From the IMG/VR virus record IMGVR_UViG_3300028888_000089: a stretch of DNA of 31,595 nt; one strand, written 5' to 3'. This document shows positions 2,591 through 30,140 of this stretch, piece after piece. Numbering within the stretch: position 1 is the first letter of the stretch; every line of letters begins with the position of its first letter. A program made the translations under genes and the position numbers. The DNA comes from an uncultured virus (IMG/VR IMGVR_UViG_3300028888_000089). Lineage: Duplodnaviria; Heunggongvirae; Uroviricota; Caudoviricetes. The notes under the pieces are model-generated. The model made no database searches. It saw nothing but the letters and a program-made list of their open reading frames with translations, and was not told the origin of the DNA.

Positions 2591-3748
<1,158 letters not shown>

Positions 3749-4097
3749 CTTCCGAATCATCCTCCTTCTTTAATGAACGTTCGTGAGTAATGGAAATATC
3801 ATCGCCTTCGATATAGACCTCAACTCTGGTGGTCTTTTGAGTTATGGATATAAGTCTATTCCATCCAGAATAAGTCGTCTTATCGAGAAAATGAGGTTCG
3901 TCTATTTCAAAAGTAATAGTACTAAATTTAGAAACCTCATTAAAATAAGAAAATGCCTCTGCAAAAGATATTCCTTCTAAAAAACAAGTTAATGTCTTTT
4001 CGTAATATCCGCATTGGCAATTTTCCAACACAGTTCCGTCACCGAGCTTTAATCTATAGACAACGTCAGCCATGCGGTATCACCTTCCATTTTGATT

Positions 4098-18229: not shown

Positions 18230-20341
18230 TTATTCGCCATCATCGTCGTCTTCTTCGGTTTCGACTTCTTCTTCGATGACAATCGCAGAATAGGGCTTAG
18301 TCAGAGCACCAGAGCAGTAAGTTTCGATCAGATACTTCTGCTGGTTGTAGTCGATGTCGAAGTCTTCGAACATATTGATGCTGCCACCCTTATCGGCACC
18401 AACATTGTAGTCATTCAGGTCAAGAATGATAACCAGCGGCTTATAGGTCTTGTCAGTGGTCTCGTCAACACGAACAGTAGAGCTTTCGCTCATCTGAGGC
18501 ACAAACAGAATTTCTTTCACGCCCAGAGCGCTGGCAATTTCAGAATCATTAGCATAAATGCGCCGACCCTGACGATCCTTCAGCAGCTTCAGACCACTAT
18601 ACTCACGGCGGGTCATCAGAGCAACGCAGTCACCAGTACCCTGATAATCTTCCCAAGCATAAGTAACGGTGTCGACCAGAGCTTCGCCCCTAGGAGTGCC
18701 TTCGGGAACTTCCAGAGTCTTGCGGATAACATACAGCGGGTCATCCTTAAACACAGGAATGATCTTATCTTCCTTAATCTTGTCTTCAGACTCGGGGCTA
18801 CGGCCATCACCAACGATAAAGGCACGAGCCAGTTCCTCGTCCAGCATCATGCGCATTTCGCTCTTCAGCCAAGCGACCTTATCGAAACCTTCGCTGATGT
18901 CAATCATGTCCTGACGATCCAGCTTCTGCTTCTTATAAACCATGTCCGGACCGACTTCACGCTTCAGAAGGGCCAGAACTTCTTCCTTCTTCTTATGGGA
19001 CTTCAGGTAACCCCGCGCACGAGCCTGTGCACCAGTGATATCGGCAAAGGTCATCTTAACCTTAGCAAAGGGAGTATGATGAACACCGCGCATGATCTTG
19101 GACACCCAGGTCGTATCGCGCTTAATGAACTGAGGGGCACCATTTCCGCTAACTTCGCGGTATTCGGGCTGCAGATAATCAATCTGCTCAATTCCATATT
19201 CCTGACTATGCTGGAGAATAGCTTCTTTTAGTGTGCTTTTCATAGCATCACGCTGGATCGTTGCAAGCTGATCATGGGTCAGGGTGTCATTCTGGATTTC
19301 CGTAGCACTGTTGTCAAAAATATTTCTATTCATAGTATAATCCTCTCCTTCTTCGTATGAATGGGAAGCTTCATCATCTTCCTCATCTTCACCATCGTCA
19401 TTGTCTTCTTTAGAAGCTAAAGCCTGAGCAACAAGGAACTCTGTTACCTTGCGCTGTTTTTCAGACATGCTATCGAGCACATCCTGAACCGTACGTTCTC
19501 CTGAATCTGCATGAGAAACGGGTTTCTCTTCTTCAGTTTCATTTCCTTCCTCTGCATCTTCGCCTTCGAGAGCCTGACCGACAAGATATTCAACAACCTG
19601 ACGCTGTTCGTCATTCATTGAATCAAGAACATCCTGAACAGTTTCGTTAGCATCGTCTTCGGAGTCATCAGCATGCTGAATTACAGAGTTCTTTTTGTTC
19701 TTCTCTTCATCGCCTTCGTCGTTTTCATTGCCTTCGCCATCGGTTTCATCTTTGTCTTCACCCTCTGGCTCTTCTTCTACGACTTTTTCATTCTTTTTAG
19801 ATTCTTTTTTTGCATTGGCCTCTTCTTCGTCTTCATCTTCTTCATCCTTTGCAGAATGCTTAAGACTCATTCCGTCGCCCATTTCAAGGCCATCTTCATC
19901 ACCAGGCCAAATATAAGCCTCGGTTTCGCTTTCTTCTCCATGTTCAAGAATCGGGAACTCAATTACTGCCCCAGGATTAGCCCCAGCAAGAACAACACTA
20001 AGTTCTCTAATGGTACCATGGATGACGTCTCCACCACGCTGAGTTAACTTATTAGCAAATATGCTAAGTCCATTAATGTCACCATGACGAATACATTCCT
20101 TGACATGCCTTCCGATGTCAGTACCATTCAAACTGCAATACGCATAAACGCCTTCATTTCGATTTTCAAGTAACGCATGACCGATTACACGAGTAGGGTC
20201 CTCATGATTATGCTGATAAACCAGCGGAACCGTTCGCCCGTCATCGTCCTTAAAGGCGTCTCTTCGAATGGTTCTGCCATCGGCGCAAAGCAGATCATTT
20301 TTAGTTGCCCAGCCACCGAAGTCAAATTTGTTTTTGCTCAT
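18230..20341 (-). CDS. Prohead protease - acidic scaffold - major capsid protein fusion (HK97 fold)
   Basis: N-terminal HK97-type protease motifs (FGGWAT, VPLVYQHNH, GLSIFAN, RELSVVLAGANPGA); D/E-rich linker aa ~135-335; capsid motifs LDEELARAFIVGDG, LKDRQGRRIY and FDIDYNQQKYLIE. Confidence 0.93.
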   Translation of the reverse strand: MSKNKFDFGGWATKNDLLCADGRTIRRDAFKDDDGRTVPLVYQHNHEDPTRVIGHALLENRNEGVYAYCSLNGTDIGRHVKECIRHGDINGLSIFANKLTQRGGDVIHGTIRELSVVLAGANPGAVIEFPILEHGEESETEAYIWPGDEDGLEMGDGMSLKHSAKDEEDEDEEEANAKKESKKNEKVVEEEPEGEDKDETDGEGNENDEGDEEKNKKNSVIQHADDSEDDANETVQDVLDSMNDEQRQVVEYLVGQALEGEDAEEGNETEEEKPVSHADSGERTVQDVLDSMSEKQRKVTEFLVAQALASKEDNDDGEDEEDDEASHSYEEGEDYTMNRNIFDNSATEIQNDTLTHDQLATIQRDAMKSTLKEAILQHSQEYGIEQIDYLQPEYREVSGNGAPQFIKRDTTWVSKIMRGVHHTPFAKVKMTFADITGAQARARGYLKSHKKKEEVLALLKREVGPDMVYKKQKLDRQDMIDISEGFDKVAWLKSEMRMMLDEELARAFIVGDGRSPESEDKIKEDKIIPVFKDDPLYVIRKTLEVPEGTPRGEALVDTVTYAWEDYQGTGDCVALMTRREYSGLKLLKDRQGRRIYANDSEIASALGVKEILFVPQMSESSTVRVDETTDKTYKPLVIILDLNDYNVGADKGGSINMFEDFDIDYNQQKYLIETYCSGALTKPYSAIVIEEEVETEEDDDDGE

Positions 20342-20365: not shown

Positions 20366-21712
20366 TTAAGGTATGTCTGCTACCTTCATTTCTGCGAGCG
20401 TAGGTTCGCCGCTGTTGTCCTCATCATAGTCCTCTTCATATTGAGAATCGTCATACTCTTCACCATCTGGAGAAGGTTCCATTGGCATCTCTCCTTCATG
20501 AGGATTAATATTCGGATTGCTCAACTGATTTGCAACCTGGTCATCAACCGGAGCATAGCCAAGCTTCTGTCTAAGTTCATTACGAGTTATGACTTCGCTG
20601 ATAACCAATTGGCTACCATTGGTGGCGATACTATCCATGGTTGCCAACTTGAAAATGTCGTTGAAGTACATAATCCGTTGATTCCTAGATCTAGCTGTCT
20701 TGGTTAAGAACTTTCGATTGAATTCCTCGGTTATCACAGCTACAATGGGTTCGATTGTACGGTTAATATAATTCAGCCAAGTTCGTTCGTCAGCAGTTCC
20801 CTCAAAGACTTCCTTCGTCATCCCTAACTGGCTATAAAGCATGCTCGTTAAGTACTCGATCTGGTCTAAGAGTTTGTTCTCGACACTTCGATTAAGCTGA
20901 GTTACTTTCTCCGTACCATCTGTGTAAGCAATGCCGTACCTATTTGTCATCAGCTGAGTTTCGATATCTCTACGACGTTTCTCAGCCTCCTGCCTTCTCA
21001 ACTCGGTTTTGATCGTGTACGGCAGTTGAATAATCAAATCGAGTTTTCCGCTTGATGATTGTTCATCAACAGCGTCAAGAAGATTTAATTTATAAATAAG
21101 CCGTTTCAAAGTAGAAATCGGCTCATTCATAACAGCATATAAAGGGTTTTCTATGATAGCAATTGTATCTTTAGGTAAGGTTAAATTCTCATGTTGGCCG
21201 GTTCTATCGTTATATAAATCAACCTTAACATGTCTAGGAAACCATTCAACGATCTTACCAACCCTTAGACTCTCTATGTCATAACTTCCGGAATATGTTC
21301 CTTCTTTCATAGGACTCCTGCTTGTATCAACTGGAACAACAGCAACAGATCCTTCATCAAGCATACTCGCAACAAGATCCTGCTTAAATGCTCTAGCTGT
21401 CTGGTCTATATTAGATTCAACATTCAAACAATAATTCAATCCGGAATTTATGACTTCAACAAATCGGTCATCTTGGTCCAATTTCACATGCTGGATCTTA
21501 ACACTCGCGACATCTATAGCAATTCGTGTATATATGCCAGCCAAGATTGATCGTTCATTGCCATAGCGAAATTTTATTCTGTCTGGACGAGAATAAAAAA
21601 CAGGACCTAAGTCCTGCTTAATTATTTCTTTCTGTTCTCTTCCAAGGAATGCGTTCCAGCCATGACGGAGTCTCTGCCCAAGAGTTAAAGCATCCTGCTT
21701 CATTTCACTCAA
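20366..21712 (-). CDS. Portal protein (HK97 family)
   Basis: RIAIDVASVKIQH, LNVESNIDQT, YINRTIEPIV..ITEEFNRK and ITRNELRQKLGY motifs; directly upstream of the protease-capsid gene. Confidence 0.93.
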   Translation of the reverse strand: MSEMKQDALTLGQRLRHGWNAFLGREQKEIIKQDLGPVFYSRPDRIKFRYGNERSILAGIYTRIAIDVASVKIQHVKLDQDDRFVEVINSGLNYCLNVESNIDQTARAFKQDLVASMLDEGSVAVVPVDTSRSPMKEGTYSGSYDIESLRVGKIVEWFPRHVKVDLYNDRTGQHENLTLPKDTIAIIENPLYAVMNEPISTLKRLIYKLNLLDAVDEQSSSGKLDLIIQLPYTIKTELRRQEAEKRRRDIETQLMTNRYGIAYTDGTEKVTQLNRSVENKLLDQIEYLTSMLYSQLGMTKEVFEGTADERTWLNYINRTIEPIVAVITEEFNRKFLTKTARSRNQRIMYFNDIFKLATMDSIATNGSQLVISEVITRNELRQKLGYAPVDDQVANQLSNPNINPHEGEMPMEPSPDGEEYDDSQYEEDYDEDNSGEPTLAEMKVADIP

Positions 21713-21742: not shown

Positions 21743-21937
21743 TTAAGCATTTCTCTTGCTTGCTTTATCTGCTTTGCGCTTTTTTACGGAGTTATATGCC
21801 CAAGCGGTGGTATGTCCAGCAGCAGAAATACCAGAGCCAATAGAAACTCCAGTCGACACTGTCGCCAATAAGCTAGTGGGGCCTTTAACTCCATAATGGC
21901 AAAGAAAATATGGAGAATTTTTAAACGATGTTGGCAC
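21743..21937 (-). CDS. Leader-family gene 8: truncated leader fused to a short hydrophobic/basic peptide (possible deletion remnant)
   Basis: MPTSFKNSPYFLCHYGVKG then departs from the family consensus; GTG start with AGGAG RBS; 30 nt identical to the 5' end of 21976..22647. Confidence 0.65.
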   Translation of the reverse strand: MPTSFKNSPYFLCHYGVKGPTSLLATVSTGVSIGSGISAAGHTTAWAYNSVKKRKADKASKRNA

Positions 21938-22635
21938 GTCATCAACTCCTATTGATTAAAATCGTTTTATTTAGTTTACATCCAACGATATAATCCACTA
22001 GAATTAATATAATTCCAAAACAATTCATCTTGTTTACTTAATGGCAGATCGTTGAAATTGGGATATTGTTTTTCTAAATCAGAGTATGCTGTGCTAATCG
22101 CTTTTTTAGAGCTCATTTTCTTTGTTCCGTATTTTTCACTGCGGGGATCAATATAGTCCGGATCATTATTTGGTGACGTTTTAGAATCATTTTGTTTATT
22201 CTTTTTATTTTCTTTTTCTTTCTGTTTTTTAACTTTTTTTTCAAGTTCTTTAACGTCATCATCAGCGCTAGTGTTATAGAACACCATCTCATTTAGCCAC
22301 TCTTTACCGACTATTGTTTTTGGATCGGTTTTCATATCTTTGGCTAAAGTTTCTACAAAATTTTTCTTATAGGCATCAACAACTTCTTTTGTGTATTCTA
22401 AATTGTTAATATCCTGATTTAAATCTACTTTTTCATATTTTTTATTTATTTTCTTAAGATCCCTGTTCATATTATCAACGGATCTATTATAAAGCTCGAC
22501 CTGTTTGCCGATATCTTCGATATACCGTCTACGGCCTTCTTCAGTTAGTGTTCCATCTTCATTCTGAAACCTTCGAACGCCCCAATGTTGACCTTTGATG
22601 CCATGATGGCAAAGAAAATATGGAGAATTTTTAAA
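21896..22635. repeat. 30-bp exact direct repeat in the leader-coding regions (21896-21925 and 22606-22635)
   Basis: atggcaaagaaaatatggagaatttttaaa occurs at both positions. Confidence 0.9.
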
Positions 22636-22647
22636 AGACATTGGCAT
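21976..22647 (-). CDS. Leader-family gene 7: soluble K-rich helical body
   Basis: MPMSFKNSPYFLCHHGIKGQHWGVRRFQNEDGTLTEEGRRRY leader. Confidence 0.85.
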   Translation of the reverse strand: MPMSFKNSPYFLCHHGIKGQHWGVRRFQNEDGTLTEEGRRRYIEDIGKQVELYNRSVDNMNRDLKKINKKYEKVDLNQDINNLEYTKEVVDAYKKNFVETLAKDMKTDPKTIVGKEWLNEMVFYNTSADDDVKELEKKVKKQKEKENKKNKQNDSKTSPNNDPDYIDPRSEKYGTKKMSSKKAISTAYSDLEKQYPNFNDLPLSKQDELFWNYINSSGLYRWM

Positions 22648-22654
22648 ATGCGCA

Positions 22655-23206
22655 TCACCTCATCCTAGAAAGATCAATTTTCATCCACGATGCAGTTTTC
22701 ATACTGTCAATAAAACTGTCAGCTTTTGCTTTATATGCCTGATTCATTTTTCCTTTAATGACTCCAATAGCAGTCGCAACCAAAATAGCAGATGCTGTTT
22801 TTCCGAGCCATTCCGCTGCCTTACGCTTATTACTCTTGGTAAGGTTCTTGTATTGCTGTTCACGTTGAAGTCTACTATTTCTTCTATTTAATTCAGCATC
22901 ACTTAAAGTACTAGCATCTTTACTTTTCCAAGTAGAGCTTTCTGGTTTTTCTTTTTTATTTGAACCTTTAACTTTTTTAACACTTGACGTTTTAATTTTA
23001 TCTACTCTAGACAATATTTTATTGAGTTTAGACGAACTTTTTCCAGGACCCATTTGGCCAGGGCTACGTTTTTCTTCTAAATAATGCCGCTTTCCAGCTG
23101 CTGTTAATTCACCGTTTCTATAATAAAGTCCAGCACCCTTTTTACCAGAGCGCCCAGGTTGGCCCCAATGAATTAAATATGACGATCGATTTTCCACTAG
23201 CGTCAC
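22655..23206 (-). CDS. Leader-family gene 6: basic protein with LSDAEL...RLQRE helix and a hydrophobic segment
   Basis: SSYLIHWGQPGRSGKKGAGLYYRNGELTAAGKRHY leader; the start may be GTG at 23197 (MENRSS). Confidence 0.82.
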   Translation of the reverse strand: MTLVENRSSYLIHWGQPGRSGKKGAGLYYRNGELTAAGKRHYLEEKRSPGQMGPGKSSSKLNKILSRVDKIKTSSVKKVKGSNKKEKPESSTWKSKDASTLSDAELNRRNSRLQREQQYKNLTKSNKRKAAEWLGKTASAILVATAIGVIKGKMNQAYKAKADSFIDSMKTASWMKIDLSRMR

Positions 23207-24552
23207 CCCATTAAATTATTTAAAATTTCTTTATCCGTCAATTTTGTTCCAGGATGCTCTTTTTTGTATTCGCGAATAAGTCTAAGATTTGCCTGAGATC
23301 TTACTCCAGCTGCTACTTTTTTATTTGACTTTTTAGTATCTTCCGTTGAAGTCTTATTTTTATCTTTAGCGGCTTTTATAGTTTTCTTCCAATCAGGTTT
23401 TAATTCGGCACAGACAATACCTGCATTTTCCCATTTGACTTCCTTGTCGTCTAATCTAATAGCCTGAGTAGCACTAGGCTGGAAAAATGATAGTTCCTCA
23501 TCAGTTAGTTTTCTTTTAGTATTGCATTGAGCATCATATATCTCCATTTTTCCATCTTGAATCTCAAAAGCCATAGCATGCCCACCGAAAATAGAAGAAA
23601 CCGTTATCATTCCTCTAGATCCTTCTGGGTATTTAGATTCGCATTTGCGATATACTTCAGACCAGTTTTTTCCTCCAATGTTATCTAGCTTTTTGCCAGC
23701 GCCTTCATAAAGATCCTGGACGAGTTTATCGCCATACATCCCTGTTTCACATAATTTCGCTGTTACATCATATCCTCTACGACGTAAGTCATATGTCAAA
23801 CTGCATAAAGCACAGTTACTAGAATTTCCTTTAACAGCCAAATCAAATTTAGGATTAACGGCAGCCATATCAGATTCTCTAGTATGATCTCCTTTTATCT
23901 TCTTAGGAGGTTCATCTGCCGTAAACTGTTGTTTACTAGTAATATCTGAAAGATAGTCTTCAGAAATTTGATCGTTTTGCTCTTTATACTTTTTATGATT
24001 CTTATTTTTTCTAATTGGAGCATATATTTTGCATCCGATTATAAATGCAGCTATAGCTGTTGCTTCTGCAGCATAAGCAACAATTACTGGATCGACCGCC
24101 CCTACTTTATTTTTATCAGTGCCTTGACTAGCTACAACTTCTTTGTGTGTTTTAGCATCTAAAGGGTAAGGCGGGCCATTTTTCTTTCCCCAGGATTGTC
24201 CAGGAATACCATAATGCATCAAATATTCAGTAGTTCTTTTTACATTATAGTAATTTGACGTAACAGAAATACTATGTTCTATTTTTTGATCTTCAGGATG
24301 AATTTTATATGGGTTTTTAAGGAGCTTCATCAATTCCTTATCTTTAAGAACTACTCCTAACGGTATTGAACCGGATGCACCGCCATCTTTAGGATCAAAC
24401 AATCTGAATTCAATATTGGCTTCTGATCTGTCTACTCCTCTGGGGGCTAAACTAAATAGGTACATATCTTTATAGGGGATATAATAAATTGGATACATAT
24501 CCGGATAAATTTCTTTAACTTTAGATATGCTCTCCTTAAGACTCAAAGCCAT
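23203..24552 (-). CDS. Leader-family gene 5: N-terminal ~90-aa domain + internal leader + hydrophobic helix + papain-fold (Tox-PL-like) Cys-His-Asp domain
   Basis: Internal YLMHYGIPGQSWG (His113); NCALCSLTYDLRRRGYDVTA (Cys247), GGHAMAFE (His325), IYDAQ (Asp340). Confidence 0.8.
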   Translation of the reverse strand: MALSLKESISKVKEIYPDMYPIYYIPYKDMYLFSLAPRGVDRSEANIEFRLFDPKDGGASGSIPLGVVLKDKELMKLLKNPYKIHPEDQKIEHSISVTSNYYNVKRTTEYLMHYGIPGQSWGKKNGPPYPLDAKTHKEVVASQGTDKNKVGAVDPVIVAYAAEATAIAAFIIGCKIYAPIRKNKNHKKYKEQNDQISEDYLSDITSKQQFTADEPPKKIKGDHTRESDMAAVNPKFDLAVKGNSSNCALCSLTYDLRRRGYDVTAKLCETGMYGDKLVQDLYEGAGKKLDNIGGKNWSEVYRKCESKYPEGSRGMITVSSIFGGHAMAFEIQDGKMEIYDAQCNTKRKLTDEELSFFQPSATQAIRLDDKEVKWENAGIVCAELKPDWKKTIKAAKDKNKTSTEDTKKSNKKVAAGVRSQANLRLIREYKKEHPGTKLTDKEILNNLMG

Positions 24553-24570
24553 ATATTATACCTCCTATAA

Positions 24571-25266
24571 TTATCTATTTCGCATAAAATCAGCAAAGGC
24601 ACTGCTTCCTGAGGAACTACCGGGGTGCCAATCATATCCGCCATAATATTTAGCATTCTTAATTTTCGATAAAACAGTCCTTGCTTTATTAGCAATCATC
24701 TTATCAGCACCTGTTGATTTAGCAATGTTAACAATAGCAATAGCAGCAATAGACGTCGTTCCGACTCCAAGAAGTAGATTTTTTATGCCGCGACCAACGC
24801 GCTTTACTTTTTCTTTTGTGTCTTGTGTTTTTCTTTCCCTATTTGCTGCTTTCTGATGCTTTTCCATATCCTGCTTAGACAACTCTTGCTCAAATGCTTT
24901 CTTATAATCAGGATCCTTCATTTTTTCACTTATAAGATTTTTAATCTTCTTGCGTCTTGTCCCGGCTCCATCGCCATAATACGCTTTAGCGCGTGCATAT
25001 TCAGAAGCATCTTTTGAAGCTTCATGCTTAATCTTTTTATAGTTTTTGCTTCCATCAGCATTTATAAAATGAGATGTTTTAGTGTTATTTGTTGTTTGAC
25101 TTTGTGAACCTTCATTCTGGGATGGTTCGTGTCCATACTTTTCCATATAATAATGGCGATAGCCTTCTTCGGTAAGCTGACCATTTTTATACCAACGACC
25201 AGCTCCAACTTTGCCAGAACGACCAGGCACTCCATAATGGATTAAATATGAAGATTTATTATACAT
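24571..25266 (-). CDS. Leader-family gene 4: basic protein with a hydrophobic segment
   Basis: Start corrected to ATG 25266 (GAGGTG RBS): MYNKSSYLIHYGVPGRSGKVGAGRWYKNGQLTEEGYRHY; also EYARAKAYYGDGAGTRRK and LLLGVGTTSIAAIAIV. Confidence 0.82.
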   Translation of the reverse strand: MYNKSSYLIHYGVPGRSGKVGAGRWYKNGQLTEEGYRHYYMEKYGHEPSQNEGSQSQTTNNTKTSHFINADGSKNYKKIKHEASKDASEYARAKAYYGDGAGTRRKKIKNLISEKMKDPDYKKAFEQELSKQDMEKHQKAANRERKTQDTKEKVKRVGRGIKNLLLGVGTTSIAAIAIVNIAKSTGADKMIANKARTVLSKIKNAKYYGGYDWHPGSSSGSSAFADFMRNR

Positions 25267-25287
25267 GTATCTCACCTCTTAAAAGTA

Positions 25288-25923
25288 TTATTTAATCCCA
25301 TACTTTTTCAACAAGTCGGAATTAGATCTGTCAAATCTGCTTGTCGCTTTTCCCAATTGCCTGGCCTGCTTTTCTTGCAATTGCTTTATCTTCTCTAAAT
25401 TACGTTGGGCTTTTGCTATCTTATCATCAGTTCTGGCCATTTTATGCTCATTAGCAAGAACTTTCTTAGCTGCTCTAGAATTTCTCTTTATAGAGCTAAT
25501 ATACTTATGCTGTTTCCTTCTGCTACTTAAGTCTATGTCTTTGCCAGCCGATTTAAGTATCATTGACTTCTTCAGTTGGCCACGCTTATGAATACCATAA
25601 GCAGCAACGGCAGCTAAAGTAACTGCGCCAGCAGCGATCATAATTTTCTTAGCTTTTTCTTTTCTTGCTTTTTCCTGAGCTTTTGTCTCTTTTTTAGATT
25701 TTGTTTTAGTTACATTAGACGATGCGATCCTTTGCTTTATGGCGTTGCCAACAGCTCGAATGGCATCGGCGCCTCGATTGAAATCAGATTGCCTATACTG
25801 CTCTTCGCGTTGACGCTGTCCTTCTGGGGTCAATGAACCATCTTCATTTTGAAAACGACGAATACCCCAGTGCTGGCCTTTTATACCAAAGTGAATTAAA
25901 TAATCATTATCCTCGTACAACAT
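25288..25923 (-). CDS. Leader-family gene 3: very basic protein with one hydrophobic helix
   Basis: MLYEDNDYLIHFGIKGQHWGIRRFQNEDGSLTPEG leader; IMIAAGAVTLAAVAAYGI; paralog of 25942..26679. Confidence 0.87.
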   Translation of the reverse strand: MLYEDNDYLIHFGIKGQHWGIRRFQNEDGSLTPEGQRQREEQYRQSDFNRGADAIRAVGNAIKQRIASSNVTKTKSKKETKAQEKARKEKAKKIMIAAGAVTLAAVAAYGIHKRGQLKKSMILKSAGKDIDLSSRRKQHKYISSIKRNSRAAKKVLANEHKMARTDDKIAKAQRNLEKIKQLQEKQARQLGKATSRFDRSNSDLLKKYGIK

Positions 25924-26637
25924 AAAAGGCCTCCTGATATGTCAAATTCTGCCAATGGCGTGTATATTTCTAGCTGCCAACTTACGAGATTTCTCTATAG
26001 TATGCTTTGATAACGGCTTTAATTTTCCAGTTATCTTACTTTTAGTAAATCCTTTTTCTATGCCAATCGGACCAAGTCGCTTTTCGATAATATCAGCCAT
26101 ATTTTGAGATGCTAATTTATTGTTTTTAATATATCTACTTGCATCTTTTCTGGTCATATGAAGTGCTTTTCTAGCAGAACGTCGACCTCTTATTTTGGCC
26201 ATTTCTTTAACTCGTTTTACCGCAAGATTCTCTTGCTCTTTTGCTGTCAAAAATCTCGTATCTTTTGGGGTATATTCAGCATGCACCTTATTTTTTGCAA
26301 TTTCCATTAAGTTAGCTGTTGCTTTTTCTCTGCGATGAAGCGCATATGCTCCAGCAGCCGCTAAAGTGACTGCACCAGCTGCAATCAAAATTTTCTTAGC
26401 TCTATCTTTTCTTGCCTTTTCCTGAGCTGGTGTCCCTTTTTTAGGTTTGGATTTAGTTATATTAGATGGCGTAATTTGACGTCTCTGAGAATTTCCAACA
26501 GAGCGTATTGCATCTGTTCCGCGTTTAAAATCGTGACTTCTATATTGGTCATAATATTCAGCACGTTGACGCTGTCCTTCTGGCGTTAACGAACCATCTT
26601 CATTTTGAAAACGACGAATACCCCAGTGCTGGCCTTT
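25835..26637. repeat. 47-bp exact direct repeat in the leader-coding regions (25835-25881 and 26591-26637)
   Basis: gaaccatcttcattttgaaaacgacgaataccccagtgctggccttt occurs at both positions; similarity extends through the RBS (GGAGGCCTTTTATG). Confidence 0.9.
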
Positions 26638-26679
26638 GATGCCATAATGAACTAAATAATCGTTATCTTCGTATAGCAT
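25942..26679 (-). CDS. Leader-family gene 2: very basic protein with one hydrophobic helix
   Basis: MLYEDNDYLVHYGIKGQHWGIRRFQNEDGSLTPEG leader; ILIAAGAVTLAAAGAYAL. Confidence 0.87.
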   Translation of the reverse strand: MLYEDNDYLVHYGIKGQHWGIRRFQNEDGSLTPEGQRQRAEYYDQYRSHDFKRGTDAIRSVGNSQRRQITPSNITKSKPKKGTPAQEKARKDRAKKILIAAGAVTLAAAGAYALHRREKATANLMEIAKNKVHAEYTPKDTRFLTAKEQENLAVKRVKEMAKIRGRRSARKALHMTRKDASRYIKNNKLASQNMADIIEKRLGPIGIEKGFTKSKITGKLKPLSKHTIEKSRKLAARNIHAIGRI

Positions 26680-26696
26680 AAAAGGCCTCCTATGAA

Positions 26697-27263
26697 TTAT
26701 AAGTCTTTAATTATTTCATCATTGGAATTGACAATATACTCTAAACGATGCTCTATATAATGGTTTTTTTCGTTTTCTACGATCATATGGTCAATGATTA
26801 TCAAAAAATCTTCGTACTCTAATTTTCTCTGTGAAATTTCAATAATAGAAAACTTATCAGAATCCATATACTCATCTAAAGCGAATCCTCGACTTCTTAT
26901 CATTATACTTTTATCAAAATTTGCTATTCCATATTTGATATCAAGTCCGGATTCAATAGTTTCATAATCTCCTGTTTGAATAGTTCCGCTTTCAGAGTAT
27001 ACTATTCGAATTCCATTTAGTTTATTGTTCGTAAAAATGTAGACTAGTGCGCTTTTAGGTATTCCAGAAAGGGCAATATTTTTAGCAAAGATATAATAAG
27101 AGGACTTAGTGAATAATCCTTCAACTTCTTTGTTAAACACCTCATCTATAGAATCTCCAAAGTGAATCCCGTTTCTATATTCAAATATAGTAGGTGCTTC
27201 CGAATATGAAACGCTAGGAATAATTAATAAAATTGCTAATAATATTAGTAAAAATTTCCTCAT
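26697..27263 (-). CDS. Secreted/exported hypothetical protein (moron-like)
   Basis: Sec-type signal peptide MRKFLLILLAILLIIPSVSYSEA; AGGAGG RBS; AT-rich; lacks the family leader. Confidence 0.8.
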   Translation of the reverse strand: MRKFLLILLAILLIIPSVSYSEAPTIFEYRNGIHFGDSIDEVFNKEVEGLFTKSSYYIFAKNIALSGIPKSALVYIFTNNKLNGIRIVYSESGTIQTGDYETIESGLDIKYGIANFDKSIMIRSRGFALDEYMDSDKFSIIEISQRKLEYEDFLIIIDHMIVENEKNHYIEHRLEYIVNSNDEIIKDL

Positions 27264-27289: not shown

Positions 27290-29044
27290 TTACTCGAATG
27301 CATCTGTATTTAATTTATAAGCAACGTATGCATCAATTAATGCCGCAACAGAGTCGATCTTTTGATCGGACCGCTTTTTCTGCAGCTTTCTGTTGCCATT
27401 TGTGTCTTCAAGTGTAACAGCATTTCCCATTGTGAACATCATGATTTGCTGATCGAATATAAGCATTCTTTCTGCACAAATCTTTTTAATTTCGCCAATC
27501 GGAACACTCTCGGTTTTTGCACCTTGGATTACTTTCTCAACACCAAATTCGCCATTTTCGCGAATCCATCTTTCAACGAAAGCTCTCGCGTTATATGGGT
27601 CGAATCCAAAGCAACGAATATCGTATTGGCAATCTGAAATATATCGATCGAGATCATCATATACGTCCATCATTTCTAGAACTGTGCCTTCCATGATGAT
27701 AAGACTACCTTCATTTATGAAATCATCATACTTTATTCTTAATGCAGCCGAGAGCTTACTTAATGTGAATGAAGTAATATAACATCTGGTTTTCACACCA
27801 TATTGCCCACGTCCTAATGGGAATAAGAAAGTAAATGCACAGAAGTCATCGCCCTGTGACAAGTCTGCACCCATAGCGCATGGCATATTCCAGAAATCTC
27901 TTCTTCTATGTGGTATAGTTTCTTCATACTTAAAGAAGAACGTATAACCTTCAGACGGAATATTAAATCTCTTAGCGAGCATGTCATTCTTATAAGCAGG
28001 TGCATTCTCCGCTTTCTCAATATCTAACAAATATGTTTCGAATGTGACTGTTTTACCTAGATTAGGATTAGCTTTAAGCCACACCATAGGATCGGTCTTT
28101 CCAAGTTCGACTTCTTTAATATCATCAAGCTTGTAATACCAAATCGAAACATGCGGATTAATGTACTCGCCTCTTAAAATGCTCTCGAGCTCCATCTTAA
28201 TTGTATCACCAGGGCCATTACGAACCGTACCTTCGGAACTAGCAGCAACGATAAGATAGTCATCGTTCTTAGAAGCACCTTGCTCAAGAGAGCCGATAAC
28301 ATCCTCACGAATAACACCAGAAAGCCACTCGTCGACTGTTGCAATTTTACAACGAAGACCCTCAAGTTTATCGATAGACATTGGCCGGATTTCGAGAATA
28401 GAGTTTGTAAGAAAATTTTCAATACCTTTCTTTGTAGAAGCTATCTTCTGCCTATCCGCTTTACTACCAGTTGTATTTTGAAGTGATCCGTCAGTCATAA
28501 ACTTAAGCAACGGACCTCTAGCTCGAGCTATGGCTGTTCTTAATGGCGACATAACTTCATTAGCCTGCTTCATAGTAGGAGCAGTTGTAATTTGTTGCGT
28601 CGTAGAAGTGTCAACAATTAAGAAATATGCCTGAATAAAGGCCATATACATAGACTTAGCAGCAGCTCTAGGAATAACCAAAAACTGCTTATTAATGAGC
28701 CTCTTTTTTACTCTTCTTGTTTCATAATGTATGGACTTTCCATCGGGACTTGTTACGGCCACACTTCTTGTTACAAAGTAGTACCAACCAAATACCTGCT
28801 CAGCCCATAATTTAAAAGTATCCAAAAGAAAAAGATCTGACCCATCAGTTAAGGTCAGCTCATTTTCGCAAAAAGCAATAAAACCATTTATTGCATCTTC
28901 GTCGTAATAATATTGAGGATCCCTTATGAGGGCGTCTATCCTCGTCATTTCCATCGAGATCTCACGGCACACCGGAATCTCTCCACGTAGTACCTGGTCC
29001 CGGAATTTTCCATAATAATATGGAGTTGCCGTGTTTGACAGCAT
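27290..29044 (-). CDS. terL: Terminase large subunit
   Basis: Walker A-like IPRAAAKS, Walker B ATVDEW, coupling motif AASSEG, nuclease MGADLSQGDDF, FDPYNA, C-terminal KIDSVAALIDAY. Confidence 0.95.
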   Translation of the reverse strand: MLSNTATPYYYGKFRDQVLRGEIPVCREISMEMTRIDALIRDPQYYYDEDAINGFIAFCENELTLTDGSDLFLLDTFKLWAEQVFGWYYFVTRSVAVTSPDGKSIHYETRRVKKRLINKQFLVIPRAAAKSMYMAFIQAYFLIVDTSTTQQITTAPTMKQANEVMSPLRTAIARARGPLLKFMTDGSLQNTTGSKADRQKIASTKKGIENFLTNSILEIRPMSIDKLEGLRCKIATVDEWLSGVIREDVIGSLEQGASKNDDYLIVAASSEGTVRNGPGDTIKMELESILRGEYINPHVSIWYYKLDDIKEVELGKTDPMVWLKANPNLGKTVTFETYLLDIEKAENAPAYKNDMLAKRFNIPSEGYTFFFKYEETIPHRRRDFWNMPCAMGADLSQGDDFCAFTFLFPLGRGQYGVKTRCYITSFTLSKLSAALRIKYDDFINEGSLIIMEGTVLEMMDVYDDLDRYISDCQYDIRCFGFDPYNARAFVERWIRENGEFGVEKVIQGAKTESVPIGEIKKICAERMLIFDQQIMMFTMGNAVTLEDTNGNRKLQKKRSDQKIDSVAALIDAYVAYKLNTDAFE

Positions 29045-29084: not shown

Positions 29085-30140
29085 TTAGTCCCATTTAATA
29101 TGATCGACTAGCTCTTGAAGAGTTTCGCCTGGTTTTTGTTCTTTATCATTAAAGTCTCCAAATGACAAACTGGAATATTTTTTATTATTTCCAAATTCTC
29201 CAGTTTTATGTGCTTTTTTAATTTCTTTCTTTATAGCATCTACACTATCGTATTCTTTGACGCCAGCTCTATCAGCCCAGGCATTTTCCACCCAGTATGT
29301 TTTATTATTCTTAATAAAATATACTAAACTGTGCGTCATTCCACCTTTATCGCCAAGATGTTCCATGACAAAAAGAGCTTTTGGATCGAGGCCTAATTTT
29401 CTAAGCTCTCTAAGTTCATACATGACTTGATCGTGGCACGATCCTTTTCTTTGTTTACTAACAGCATCTGGAGACATTAATGTTGTAAATTCTTTGTATT
29501 TAAAATCTTTCATAGATTGGGCAACTTTATCCGCTTTTATTTGTTGCTCATCTACCCAGTCATCTTTATCTTTTCTATTTATGCTAAATACTTTAACATC
29601 TTTACTTTGATCAATTAATCTAGATACGTTTTTACGTGTGGCACTAGCCCCGTCTTCAATTACAACTGCCAATCCGACAGTGGCTGCTTTTGTCATCGCT
29701 TCGTCTTTTTTAGCTAGCCATTCTTTTGACCCAGGCTCATGATCAGTATCATTTATAGGATGGGTTTTCCATTTTTTATTTGCCGAATATCTAACACTTG
29801 TTCCTGGGCCATATACTTCAACTCGTTCGTATTTCTTTGAATTCAAATAATCTTGAACTTGTCTATCAATCCCAGGAGCATCTCCAACTACAAATTTGCT
29901 TCCGCTTTCTATAGCTTCATCGATCTCATCGCGAATTTCTTTCGGAAGCTCTTTTCTATAATACTCTGATTCTTTATCCTGTGTCTTTGATGATCCAGAA
30001 ATAAAAACAACATCATTTTTAGAGTATCTGTGTTTCCCTTCTTGCGTAAGCGTTCCGTCTTCGTTTTGAAATCGACGAACACCCCAACGCTGGCCTTTAA
30101 TGCCATAATGGACTAAATATAAGTTGTCTTCGTATAGCAT
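29085..30140 (-). CDS. Leader-family gene 1: leader + SLOG/YspA-like domain + transglutaminase/papain-like domain
   Basis: MLYEDNLYLVHYGIKGQRWGVRRFQNEDGTLTQEG; VFISGS...FVVGDAPGIDRQVQDYL...KDEAM...ATRKNV (SLOG-like); GSCHDQ (Cys235), THSLVYF (His270), YWVENAW (Glu285). Confidence 0.75.
   Translation of the reverse strand: MLYEDNLYLVHYGIKGQRWGVRRFQNEDGTLTQEGKHRYSKNDVVFISGSSKTQDKESEYYRKELPKEIRDEIDEAIESGSKFVVGDAPGIDRQVQDYLNSKKYERVEVYGPGTSVRYSANKKWKTHPINDTDHEPGSKEWLAKKDEAMTKAATVGLAVVIEDGASATRKNVSRLIDQSKDVKVFSINRKDKDDWVDEQQIKADKVAQSMKDFKYKEFTTLMSPDAVSKQRKGSCHDQVMYELRELRKLGLDPKALFVMEHLGDKGGMTHSLVYFIKNNKTYWVENAWADRAGVKEYDSVDAIKKEIKKAHKTGEFGNNKKYSSLSFGDFNDKEQKPGETLQELVDHIKWD

Follow-up and report, generated by a model that had tools for sequence, protein, structure and literature searches.

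To our knowledge, the cleavage code of the prohead protease has been defined for only a few model phages, namely T4, the PhiKZ/SPN3US group and HK97. The T4 protease gp21, of family S77, recognises the motif L/I-x-E, the maturation cut of HK97 falls after Lys103, and herpesvirus assemblin follows the consensus V/L-x-A↓S. For the giant phage SPN3US, excerpts of one report (PMC10052503) describe gp245 as cutting after A-X-E (P3-P2-P1), with a preference for Ser at P1' and with several cuts in propeptides that belong to head and ejection proteins; the same excerpts refer to propeptide targeting in T4. Here we analyse a stretch of 31,595 nucleotides from an uncultured tailed virus (IMG/VR record IMGVR_UViG_3300028888_000089; hereafter the window), in which a single open reading frame (ORF) of 703 amino acids (aa) joins a protease, an acidic scaffold and a capsid protein. 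We propose, from comparative sequence evidence and with a probability of about 0.75, that the hydrophobic-x-His elements of this protein, [LIMVA]-x-H↓[S/A/G], are the maturation sites of its fused S78 protease.

T4 gp21 resembles the fusion system in that a hydrophobic-x-P1 code is used many times in the scaffold core, and the same enzyme removes short N-terminal leaders of packaged proteins, a step for which the leader-bearing proteins considered below are candidates. T4 differs in having Glu at P1 and in encoding protease, scaffold and capsid in separate genes; here they form one chain with a predicted P1 His. HK97 has a protease of the same Pfam family, the same capsid fold and, in the delta domain of gp5, a scaffold that is fused N-terminally to the capsid and is removed by the protease, but its gp4 protease is a separate gene, and the P1 predicted here is His. 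Herpesvirus assemblin is likewise fused to its scaffold, with a release site after the protease and a maturation site at the far end, and it shares the hydrophobic P3 and the Ser at P1'; it differs in its P1 Ala, in its separate capsid protein and in lacking such multiple internal cuts. SPN3US gp245 and the PhiKZ type, as far as the excerpts of PMC10052503 go, are similar in their P3-P2-P1 motif, Ser at P1', multiple propeptide cuts and ejection proteins with N-terminal propeptides, but have Glu rather than His at P1, Ala rather than Leu/Ile/Met at P3 and no capsid fusion.

The protease-scaffold-capsid fusion itself is already annotated in actinophages, whose records reach ~41-45% identity over ~77-87% of the query (two Streptomyces records with split annotation cover 69%). 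It is described in PMC5513430 and bioRxiv 10.1101/2020.01.10.891226, the available passages of which contain no cleavage sites, His motif or role for the small genes upstream. A literature search, with most subscription journals outside its reach, returned no description of the His motif, of the function of DUF7211 (the family of N-terminal leaders treated below), of the leader core string or of capsid maturation cleavage after histidine.

The 703-aa ORF matches Pfam Peptidase_S78 (PF04586) over aa 24-128 (24.7 bits, cut-off 21), Phage_capsid (PF05065) over aa 485-688 (30 bits, cut-off 24.2) and phrog_3270 (E 5.5e-198), and these matches identify it as a protease-scaffold-capsid fusion. Its parts are the following:

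18230-20341, minus strand: protease-scaffold-capsid fusion ORF, 703 aa (ORF list, Pfam, PHROG).
19943..20341, minus strand: protease domain, aa 1-133 (AlphaFold2 confidence, conserved residues).
19208..19942, minus strand: acidic scaffold linker, aa 134-378, with seven His (sequence, AlphaFold2 model).
19550..19639, minus strand: scaffold helical module 1, aa 235-264 (AlphaFold2 helices 235-240, 244-259 and 261-264; 10-residue block confidence 86-93).
19400..19489, minus strand: scaffold helical module 2, aa 285-314 (AlphaFold2 helices 285-291 and 294-314).
18233..19207, minus strand: HK97-fold capsid domain, aa 379-703, 325 aa, 37.1 kDa (Foldseek, VIA).

The AlphaFold2 model of the fusion was built on 126 sequences and has a mean predicted local distance difference test score (pLDDT) of 79.3. 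The protease domain reaches 92-98 in the 10-residue blocks from 11 to 130 and 77 in block 1-10, and the segments 134-227, 266-278, 317-341 and 344-350 fall below 50. The two helical modules are an internal repeat (local alignment score 124). The fold of the capsid domain is recovered by Foldseek (E 6e-13) and by VIA, with Z 17.6 to the gene transfer agent (GTA) capsid over 270 aligned residues and Z 16.7 to HK97 over 267. A fold search with the whole protein, the only form in which the protease domain was searched, gave capsids as matches, over model span 375-694; by sequence, no solved structure matched the fusion at E up to 0.01. In an alignment of 126 rows (A1), S93 is present in 126/126, H44 in 125/126, D88 in 126/126 and E113 in 126/126. 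S93 and H44 are likely the catalytic pair, an assignment made through the numbering of HK97 gp4, in which H65 and S114 have the same spacing as H44 and S93; more speculatively, D88 and E113 are candidates for reading the His side chain.

The fusion contains 16 His, six in the protease domain, seven in the linker and three in the capsid domain. The linker His are residues 134, 162, 223, 277, 327, 356 and 378, with codons from 19940-19942 down to 19208-19210. A preliminary description of this DNA had claimed that all seven sit in [LIVA]-x-H, and this is borne out: L, I, V or A stands two residues before the His in 7/7, these residues making up 19.8% of positions 129-385, and when that segment was shuffled 200,000 times, all seven fitted with a frequency of 1e-5. 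S, A or G directly follows six of the seven. When 768 combinations of residue, offset and class were compared post hoc, that of His, offset -2 and L/I/V/A ranked first. Away from the linker, the rule fits three of the six protease-domain His and one of the three in the capsid domain, and for the His of other window ORFs a hydrophobic residue at -2 is found near background. Residues 224-277 and 278-327 are an internal duplication, each copy ending in x-S-H, so the linker His are not fully independent.

The sites are listed below, with a slash directly after the His; counts out of 120 refer to close homologues and those out of 151 to distant representatives, both sets being defined in the next paragraphs.

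19937..19948, minus strand: site 1, L132-E-H134, PILEH/GEES, at the end of the protease domain (His in 120/120, in 150/151 and in 126/126 rows of A1).
19853..19864, minus strand: site 2, L160-K-H162, MSLKH/SAKD (His in 105/120; P3 L 105, I 7, V 6).
19670..19681, minus strand: site 3, I221-Q-H223, SVIQH/ADDS, in a lineage-specific insertion (gap in 106/120, His in 12/120).
19508..19519, minus strand: site 4, V275-S-H277, KPVSH/ADSG, between the helical modules (His in 96/120; low-confidence segment 266-278).
19358..19369, minus strand: site 5, A325-S-H327, DEASH/SYEE, after module 2 (His in 120/120, P1' Ser in 115/120; low-confidence segment 317-341).
19271..19282, minus strand: site 6, L354-T-H356, DTLTH/DQLA (His in 116/120, P3 Leu in 120/120; first residue of the modelled helix 356-368).
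19205..19216, minus strand: site 7, L376-Q-H378, AILQH/SQEY, with the predicted mature capsid start S379, SQEYGIEQ (His in 119/120 and 145/151).

The fusion has relatives in at least 7996 proteins (90% clustering) at E <=0.001, and an exhaustive search found 1612 at the same threshold among 50%-identity cluster representatives. Among 50,697 phage records it occurs in 244, of which 133 cover at least 80% of the query, and the hosts of these sequenced phages include Arthrobacter, Gordonia, Streptomyces, Rhodococcus, Lactococcus and gut bacteria. In the close set, the best 120 of the at least 7996 proteins by word-index search (54-100% identity), 97% of all linker His have L, V, A, I or M at P3 and 87% have A, S or G at P1', and the acidic residues between the sites vary freely.

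The distant set comprises the best 150 of the 1612 cluster representatives, all at <=54% identity (151 with the query). The preliminary description had proposed conservation in homologous linkers as a check, and across these representatives 973/1040 linker His (93.6%) have a hydrophobic P3 (L/I/V/M/A/F) against a background of 0.30. Position tables, which use the 1001 linker His left once any lying within five residues of a segment end had been removed, give P3 an information of 1.76 bits (L 0.42, I 0.20, M 0.11, V 0.10; family-wide order L > I > M > V > A > F), with S 0.31 and A 0.28 at P1' and D 0.41 and E 0.16 at P2'. The bias belongs to His of the linker: a hydrophobic residue stands at -2 in 0.94 of linker His and in 0.25-0.39 for 11 other residue types tested, and the capsid-domain His of the distant representatives have no P3 bias (0.14 bits), the motif being neither depleted nor enriched there (187/537 = 0.35, background 0.36). 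A preference for basic P1 residues in general was ruled out, as linker Lys and Arg are without P3 bias (0.25 and 0.34).

His is more frequent in distant linkers (3.5%) than in capsid domains (1.1%), with 4-17 linker His per protein and a median spacing of 26 residues between fitting sites. Even in columns with <5% His, the His present fit the motif in 154/221 cases, a count to be read with the unreliable alignment of the linker in mind; this speaks against the sites having come down from a few ancestral ones by inheritance alone. The column of R339 (M-N-R-N-I-F; 19325-19327, minus strand) holds His in 73/151 representatives and Met at P3 in 128/151, which points to a widespread eighth site, M-x-H/N-V-F, that has apparently been lost here and in close relatives. 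The same linker pattern was read directly in 9/9 named phage homologues (ReqiPepy6, Count, CapnMurica, Qui, Kenosha, BitterVaud1, Bing, Lactococcus P118 and Lactococcus 1706), whose hosts are Rhodococcus, Microbacterium, Arthrobacter, Gordonia, Streptomyces, Bifidobacterium and Lactococcus; in ReqiPepy6, for example, the sites are VNIA-H-GDG, IELT-H-SEE, MTIA-H-ADD, KALS-H-SEI and YALK-H-GIE.

The position of the sites in the model agrees with the description of the first His as lying right after the protease and the last right before the capsid. pLDDT drops below 50 exactly from residue 134, where the modelled protease domain ends. At the other end, HK97 residues 104-383 align to model 382-693 (entry 2fs3; entry 1ohg gives 364-693), T5 residues 167-457 to 383-693 and GTA residues 89-385 to 384-693. 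The processed capsid chains start at model 382-384, which places the last site, H378, where mature capsids begin. Of the sites between, H162, H223, H277 and H327 lie in low-confidence non-helical segments, H277 and H327 flanking the helical modules.

In the maturation pathway that we propose, the fusion would assemble into the procapsid with protease and scaffold facing inward, and the protease would cut after His in [L/I/M/V/A]-x-H before S, A or G, often followed by D or E. We infer a scissile bond after the His by analogy with related prohead proteases and their P3-x-P1 sites. If all seven sites were cut, the products would be 134, 28, 61, 54, 50, 29, 22 and 325 residues long: the free protease (aa 1-134), six acidic peptides between 22 and 61 aa in length and a mature capsid of 325 aa from S379, and each helical module would come off as its own peptide of ~50 aa. 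The earlier proposal that the phage protease cuts at hydrophobic-x-His is in this respect strongly supported by conservation, by a bias found for His only, by the domain boundaries and by the avoidance of the motif in cargo bodies reported below; the class [LIVA] that went with it was slightly narrow, since P3 can also be M or F.

The linker His might instead be no cleavage sites at all and make metal- or pH-dependent scaffold contacts, with the hydrophobic residue at -2 belonging to a recurring structural unit, for example a helix end. His beside Asp or Glu is common in metal binding or pH sensing, and the conserved His beside acidic residues could serve either here; part of the pattern does come from the internal repeat; and the model puts H356 and H378 in helices (356-368 and 371-382; mean pLDDT 74, 84, 78 and 67 in the 10-residue blocks over 351-390), not in loops. 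The cleavage reading is further weakened by sites that are not universal (H223 in 12/120, H277 in 96/120, H162 in 105/120), by the 67/1040 linker His that do not fit, by counts that are not independent, the sites being partly tied by duplication and common descent, and by a literature search that, with most subscription journals outside its reach, gave no mature N-terminus or mass for any fusion-family member. Against scaffold contacts, one His sits exactly at the end of the protease domain and another where mature capsids start, and four lie in non-helical segments of low confidence. The small P1', the spacing of 22-61 aa and the avoidance in cargo bodies fit a protease code better than a structural repeat, and the P3-x-P1 form matches the described prohead protease motif. 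We consider scaffold contacts very improbable as the explanation of the pattern, which is far beyond chance once relatives are considered; the cleavage reading has good support where the scaffold is concerned and is no more than plausible in the case of the cargo leaders.

These leaders belong to genes around the terminase and the portal. The window is a phage or prophage morphogenesis module on the minus strand, in the order HNH endonuclease, DUF7211 protein, large terminase, small ORFs, portal and the 703-aa ORF, followed by connector, tail and lysis genes. The genes upstream of the fusion are:

29085-30140, minus strand: DUF7211 protein.
27290-29044, minus strand: large terminase.
21743-27263, minus strand: run of small ORFs.
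20366-21712, minus strand: portal.

In agreement with the preliminary description, which had noted the L-x-H core of the scaffold sites in cargo leaders reading YLVH, YLIH, YLMH and FLCH, eight window ORFs contain Y/F-L-x-H followed by Y/F/W/H and then Gly:

30042..30140, minus strand: DUF7211 leader YLVH11/YG of the 351-aa cargo ORF 29085-30140 (DUF7211 28.0 bits, cut-off 27).
26581..26679, minus strand: DUF7211 leader YLVH11/YG of the 245-aa cargo ORF 25942-26679 (23.7 bits, below the cut-off; leader alignment A2).
25825..25923, minus strand: DUF7211 leader YLIH11/FG of the 211-aa cargo ORF 25288-25923 (20.6 bits, below the cut-off; A2).
25162..25275, minus strand: variant leader YLIH13/YG, with an insertion before the Trp, of the 234-aa ORF 24571-25275 (sequence; no Pfam DUF7211 match).
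24148..24240, minus strand: internal leader YLMH113/YG of the 449-aa ORF 23203-24552 (sequence).
23093..23206, minus strand: variant leader YLIH13/WG of the 183-aa ORF 22655-23206 (sequence).
22540..22647, minus strand: DUF7211 leader FLCH14/HG of the 223-aa ORF 21976-22647 (25.5 bits, below the cut-off).
21878..21937, minus strand: leader remnant FLCH14/YG of the 64-aa ORF 21743-21937 (N-terminus duplicates that of 21976-22647).

The DUF7211 profile (PF23847; 25 positions, cut-off 27 bits) places one of the eight above its cut-off and three below, and four are without a match; by eye, the L-x-H-x-G core is present in 8/8. The columns H, G, G, W, G and R of A2 are invariant in the three window leaders included, and the variant and remnant leaders depart downstream. 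The 64-aa ORF 21743-21937 repeats the first 16 residues of 21976-22647 nearly exactly and diverges after YGVKG, so that from its sequence it looks like the remnant of a duplicated cargo gene.

As to the bodies of these proteins, most of those encoded in 21976-26679 (minus strand) join to the leader one hydrophobic helix and a stretch rich in Lys and Arg, for example KKILIAAGAVTLAAAGAYAL, and the counterparts of the cargo genes in Arthrobacter phage Qui carry the annotation 'membrane protein'. The 449-aa ORF 23203-24552 has a weak match to Gln_amidase (papain-fold toxin 1) at aa 246-344 (26.2 bits, cut-off 24.1), and its 112-aa extension before the leader holds an I-E-H93/S site. A weak transglutaminase-like match (DUF553, below the cut-off) was found in cargo ORF 29085-30140.

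Leaders of the same kind are found well beyond the window. Genes around the terminase and portal begin with one in eight named phages, for example as D-D-F-L-A-H-Y-G-V-K-G-M-K-W-G; in orf7 of Lactococcus 1706, the leader core lies ~30 residues in from the start, and this protein with DUF7211-like leaders is labelled 'structural protein' in its record, the label coming from the record alone. Actinophages share the order terminase, small genes, portal and fusion, together with the same His motif and leaders; the window is a Firmicute-type gut relative whose leaders, YL-x-H-[YFHW]-G-I-K-G-Q-x-W-G, differ from those of the actinophage records. When leaders were counted in 80 fusion-seeded genome loci with a pattern that did not require the His, His stood at the leader position in 133/134, the single exception having its His shifted by one residue, and P3 was L in 120 and I in 11.

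Leader and fusion also occur together, in both directions, and with the near-invariant L-x-H of the leaders this upholds the earlier suggestion that the cargo array is tied to the head module. At least one leader is present in 53/60 fusion-seeded loci with >=5 kb upstream (7/20 of the shorter loci), and the fusion is present in 33/36 leader-seeded viral loci with >=8 kb downstream (7/33 of the shorter loci). No alternative head type was seen in the three leader-seeded loci without a fusion match (L144, L101 and L137). In L144 the terminase comes so late that the fusion would fall past the flank. The IMG/VR contigs L101 and L137 have a leader and a terminase followed by tail-fibre-like genes (GDSL lipase; Ala/Ser/Glu repeats), with no recognisable capsid gene and no complete portal plus capsid, the L137 portal being homologous over its first 263 residues only; both may be rearranged phages or assembly chimeras. 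Compared at the level of host genus, leader matches (179 of the 50,697 phage records) are confined to genera that also have the fusion (244 records), and the nearest record (G001) has six leader matches at E up to 0.1, three of them above the family cut-off. In actinophages, a second family between portal and fusion has the start [F/L]-[L/I]-x-H, continues with Y-D-P-V-K-A-R-E-Y-Y and is without the rest of DUF7211. Since it shares only this start with the leaders, the short element is suggested to be a module of its own.

The bodies of the cargo proteins avoid the motif. In 179 leader-bearing ORFs, taken stop to stop on the match strand from all loci and the window, the His counted were those between the stop codon and a point 25 residues past the last leader; a hydrophobic residue stands at -2 in 72/358 of them (0.20). 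The same measure gives 0.27-0.38 at seven other offsets, 0.25-0.37 for nine other residue types at -2, and 1522/4114 (0.37) in 787 same-strand control ORFs of >=150 aa (Fisher p 3.6e-11 against cargo, in counts that ignore relatedness among paralogues and phages). The depletion is strongest where P1' is small or polar (24/159 vs 704/1705, p 1.2e-11). Ahead of the leader the picture differs: in 11 ORFs with >=40 residues there, 33/49 of the extension His fit the motif, as expected for a degraded propeptide. We regard the avoidance in cargo bodies as the strongest new evidence that the cargo meets a protease of this specificity. Gene 13 of Gordonia phage Kenosha (L007 522-2234) lies upstream of the terminase and encodes 570 aa, with the leader at residue 358; of the 17 His ahead of the leader, 14 have a hydrophobic residue at -2, and the protein looks like a long propeptide or polyprotein with many candidate cut sites.

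We propose that the DUF7211-leader cargo ORFs around the terminase and portal would most likely be brought into the procapsid, where they would be exposed to the same protease, and that the leader would then be cut after its His, or merely bound. Packaging of the cargo into the procapsid is itself inferred, from indirect indications in gene position, co-occurrence, motif avoidance and the 'structural protein' label of 1706 orf7, and trimming of the leader at the His is a tentative reading of the sequences, which we put somewhat short of an even chance. Predictions of structure are silent on the matter: modelled alone, the leader has pLDDT 61, 64 and 80 in the blocks of residues 1-30 and no secondary structure before residue 25, which is uninformative on burial of the His, and a complex prediction of protease aa 1-130 (A1) with a cargo leader (A2) scored 0.01 against a mark of 0.32, which counts neither for nor against binding.

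Instead of being a substrate, the leader might use L-x-H-aromatic-Gly as a docking element or pseudo-substrate that tethers the cargo to the protease, the scaffold or another head part and stay on the mature cargo, with the scaffold sites still being cut. Several observations count in favour of docking and against trimming. The preliminary description had cautioned that P1' residues differ between leaders and scaffold, and they do: leader P1' is H in 78, Y in 31, F in 13, W in 6 and S in 6, followed by an invariable Gly, which lies outside the linker-site range of a small residue and then an acidic one. Most of the conserved leader stretch lies after the His, the longest part being G-x-x-G-x-x-W-G-x-R, and the depletion in cargo bodies is marginal when P1' is aromatic (9/36 vs 220/519, p 0.05). 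Yet the leaders keep their His almost without exception although the motif is avoided in the bodies of the cargo, a different family has no more than the [F/L]-[L/I]-x-H start in common with them and carries Y, E or A at P1', the extensions before internal leaders are rich in fitting His like a degraded propeptide, and a pseudo-substrate would block an enzyme needed for head maturation. We judge docking without cleavage to be rather unlikely. The L-x-H shared by scaffold and leaders could also be a coincidence, DUF7211 then standing on its own with some other function, for example binding to the portal, to DNA or to a membrane, and merely being inherited in the same head module. All co-occurrence comes from one phage lineage with a syntenic head module and could reflect shared descent of that module and not a functional tie; the lack of confident structure over residues 1-30 of the leader alone is compatible with such a role and says nothing of a partner. 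This explanation is improbable in our view, as the specific avoidance of hydrophobic-x-His at -2 in cargo bodies is hard to explain without a protease of this specificity, and no leader-bearing locus among those examined has another identifiable capsid type.

Combining scaffold and cargo, hydrophobic-x-His may be a lineage-wide address-and-cut code, in which a His-specific S78 protease would fragment the scaffold and process DUF7211-tagged, capsid-loaded proteins that are delivered with the DNA. The cargo set would then be modular and fast-changing, and would include toxin-like enzyme domains and hydrophobic-helix proteins. We hold this joint proposal to be possible, with the odds slightly against it. 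If it is true, DUF7211 would be the first described capsid-loading tag for a very large group of phages from Gram-positive and gut bacteria, and could serve to package proteins of choice in their heads.

His at P1, if true, would be an unusual specificity for a serine protease. The motif supplies a rule, open to immediate checking, for annotating scaffold fragments and the N-terminus of the mature capsid. It also offers a first idea of what DUF7211 and the unexplained small genes between terminase and portal might do, and makes cargo packaging in siphophages of Gram-positive hosts testable by mass spectrometry of virions.

Some smaller observations concern the neighbouring genes. In two actinophage genes, in loci L005 (3025-3507) and L009 (5596-6090), the annotated starts (M-K-W-G...) fall inside a leader; the frames run on upstream through F-L-E-H-Y-G and L-I-H-Y-G, so these starts were probably called too late. 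The 188-aa ORF 26697-27263 (minus strand) lies within the cargo array without a leader of its own, and its N-terminus resembles a signal peptide (MRKFLLILLAILLIIPSVSYS); neither Pfam nor PHROG gave a match, and the ORF may be an inserted gene without relation to the head. Among the tail genes, the 389-aa ORF 2591-3760 (minus strand) carries collagen-like G-x-x repeats in its C-terminal part.

The portal has a scaffold-type motif at aa 15-18, R-L-R-H/G-W-N-A-F (L15-R-H17/G; 21659-21670, minus strand). Of 83 homologous portals, 82 have a hydrophobic P3, 79 have A, G or S at P1' and only 48 have the His itself, the others having N (16), R (8), S (4), K (3), Q (2), G (1) or D (1) at that position. 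Judged by this pattern, the N-terminal site of the portal may be an optional trimming site.

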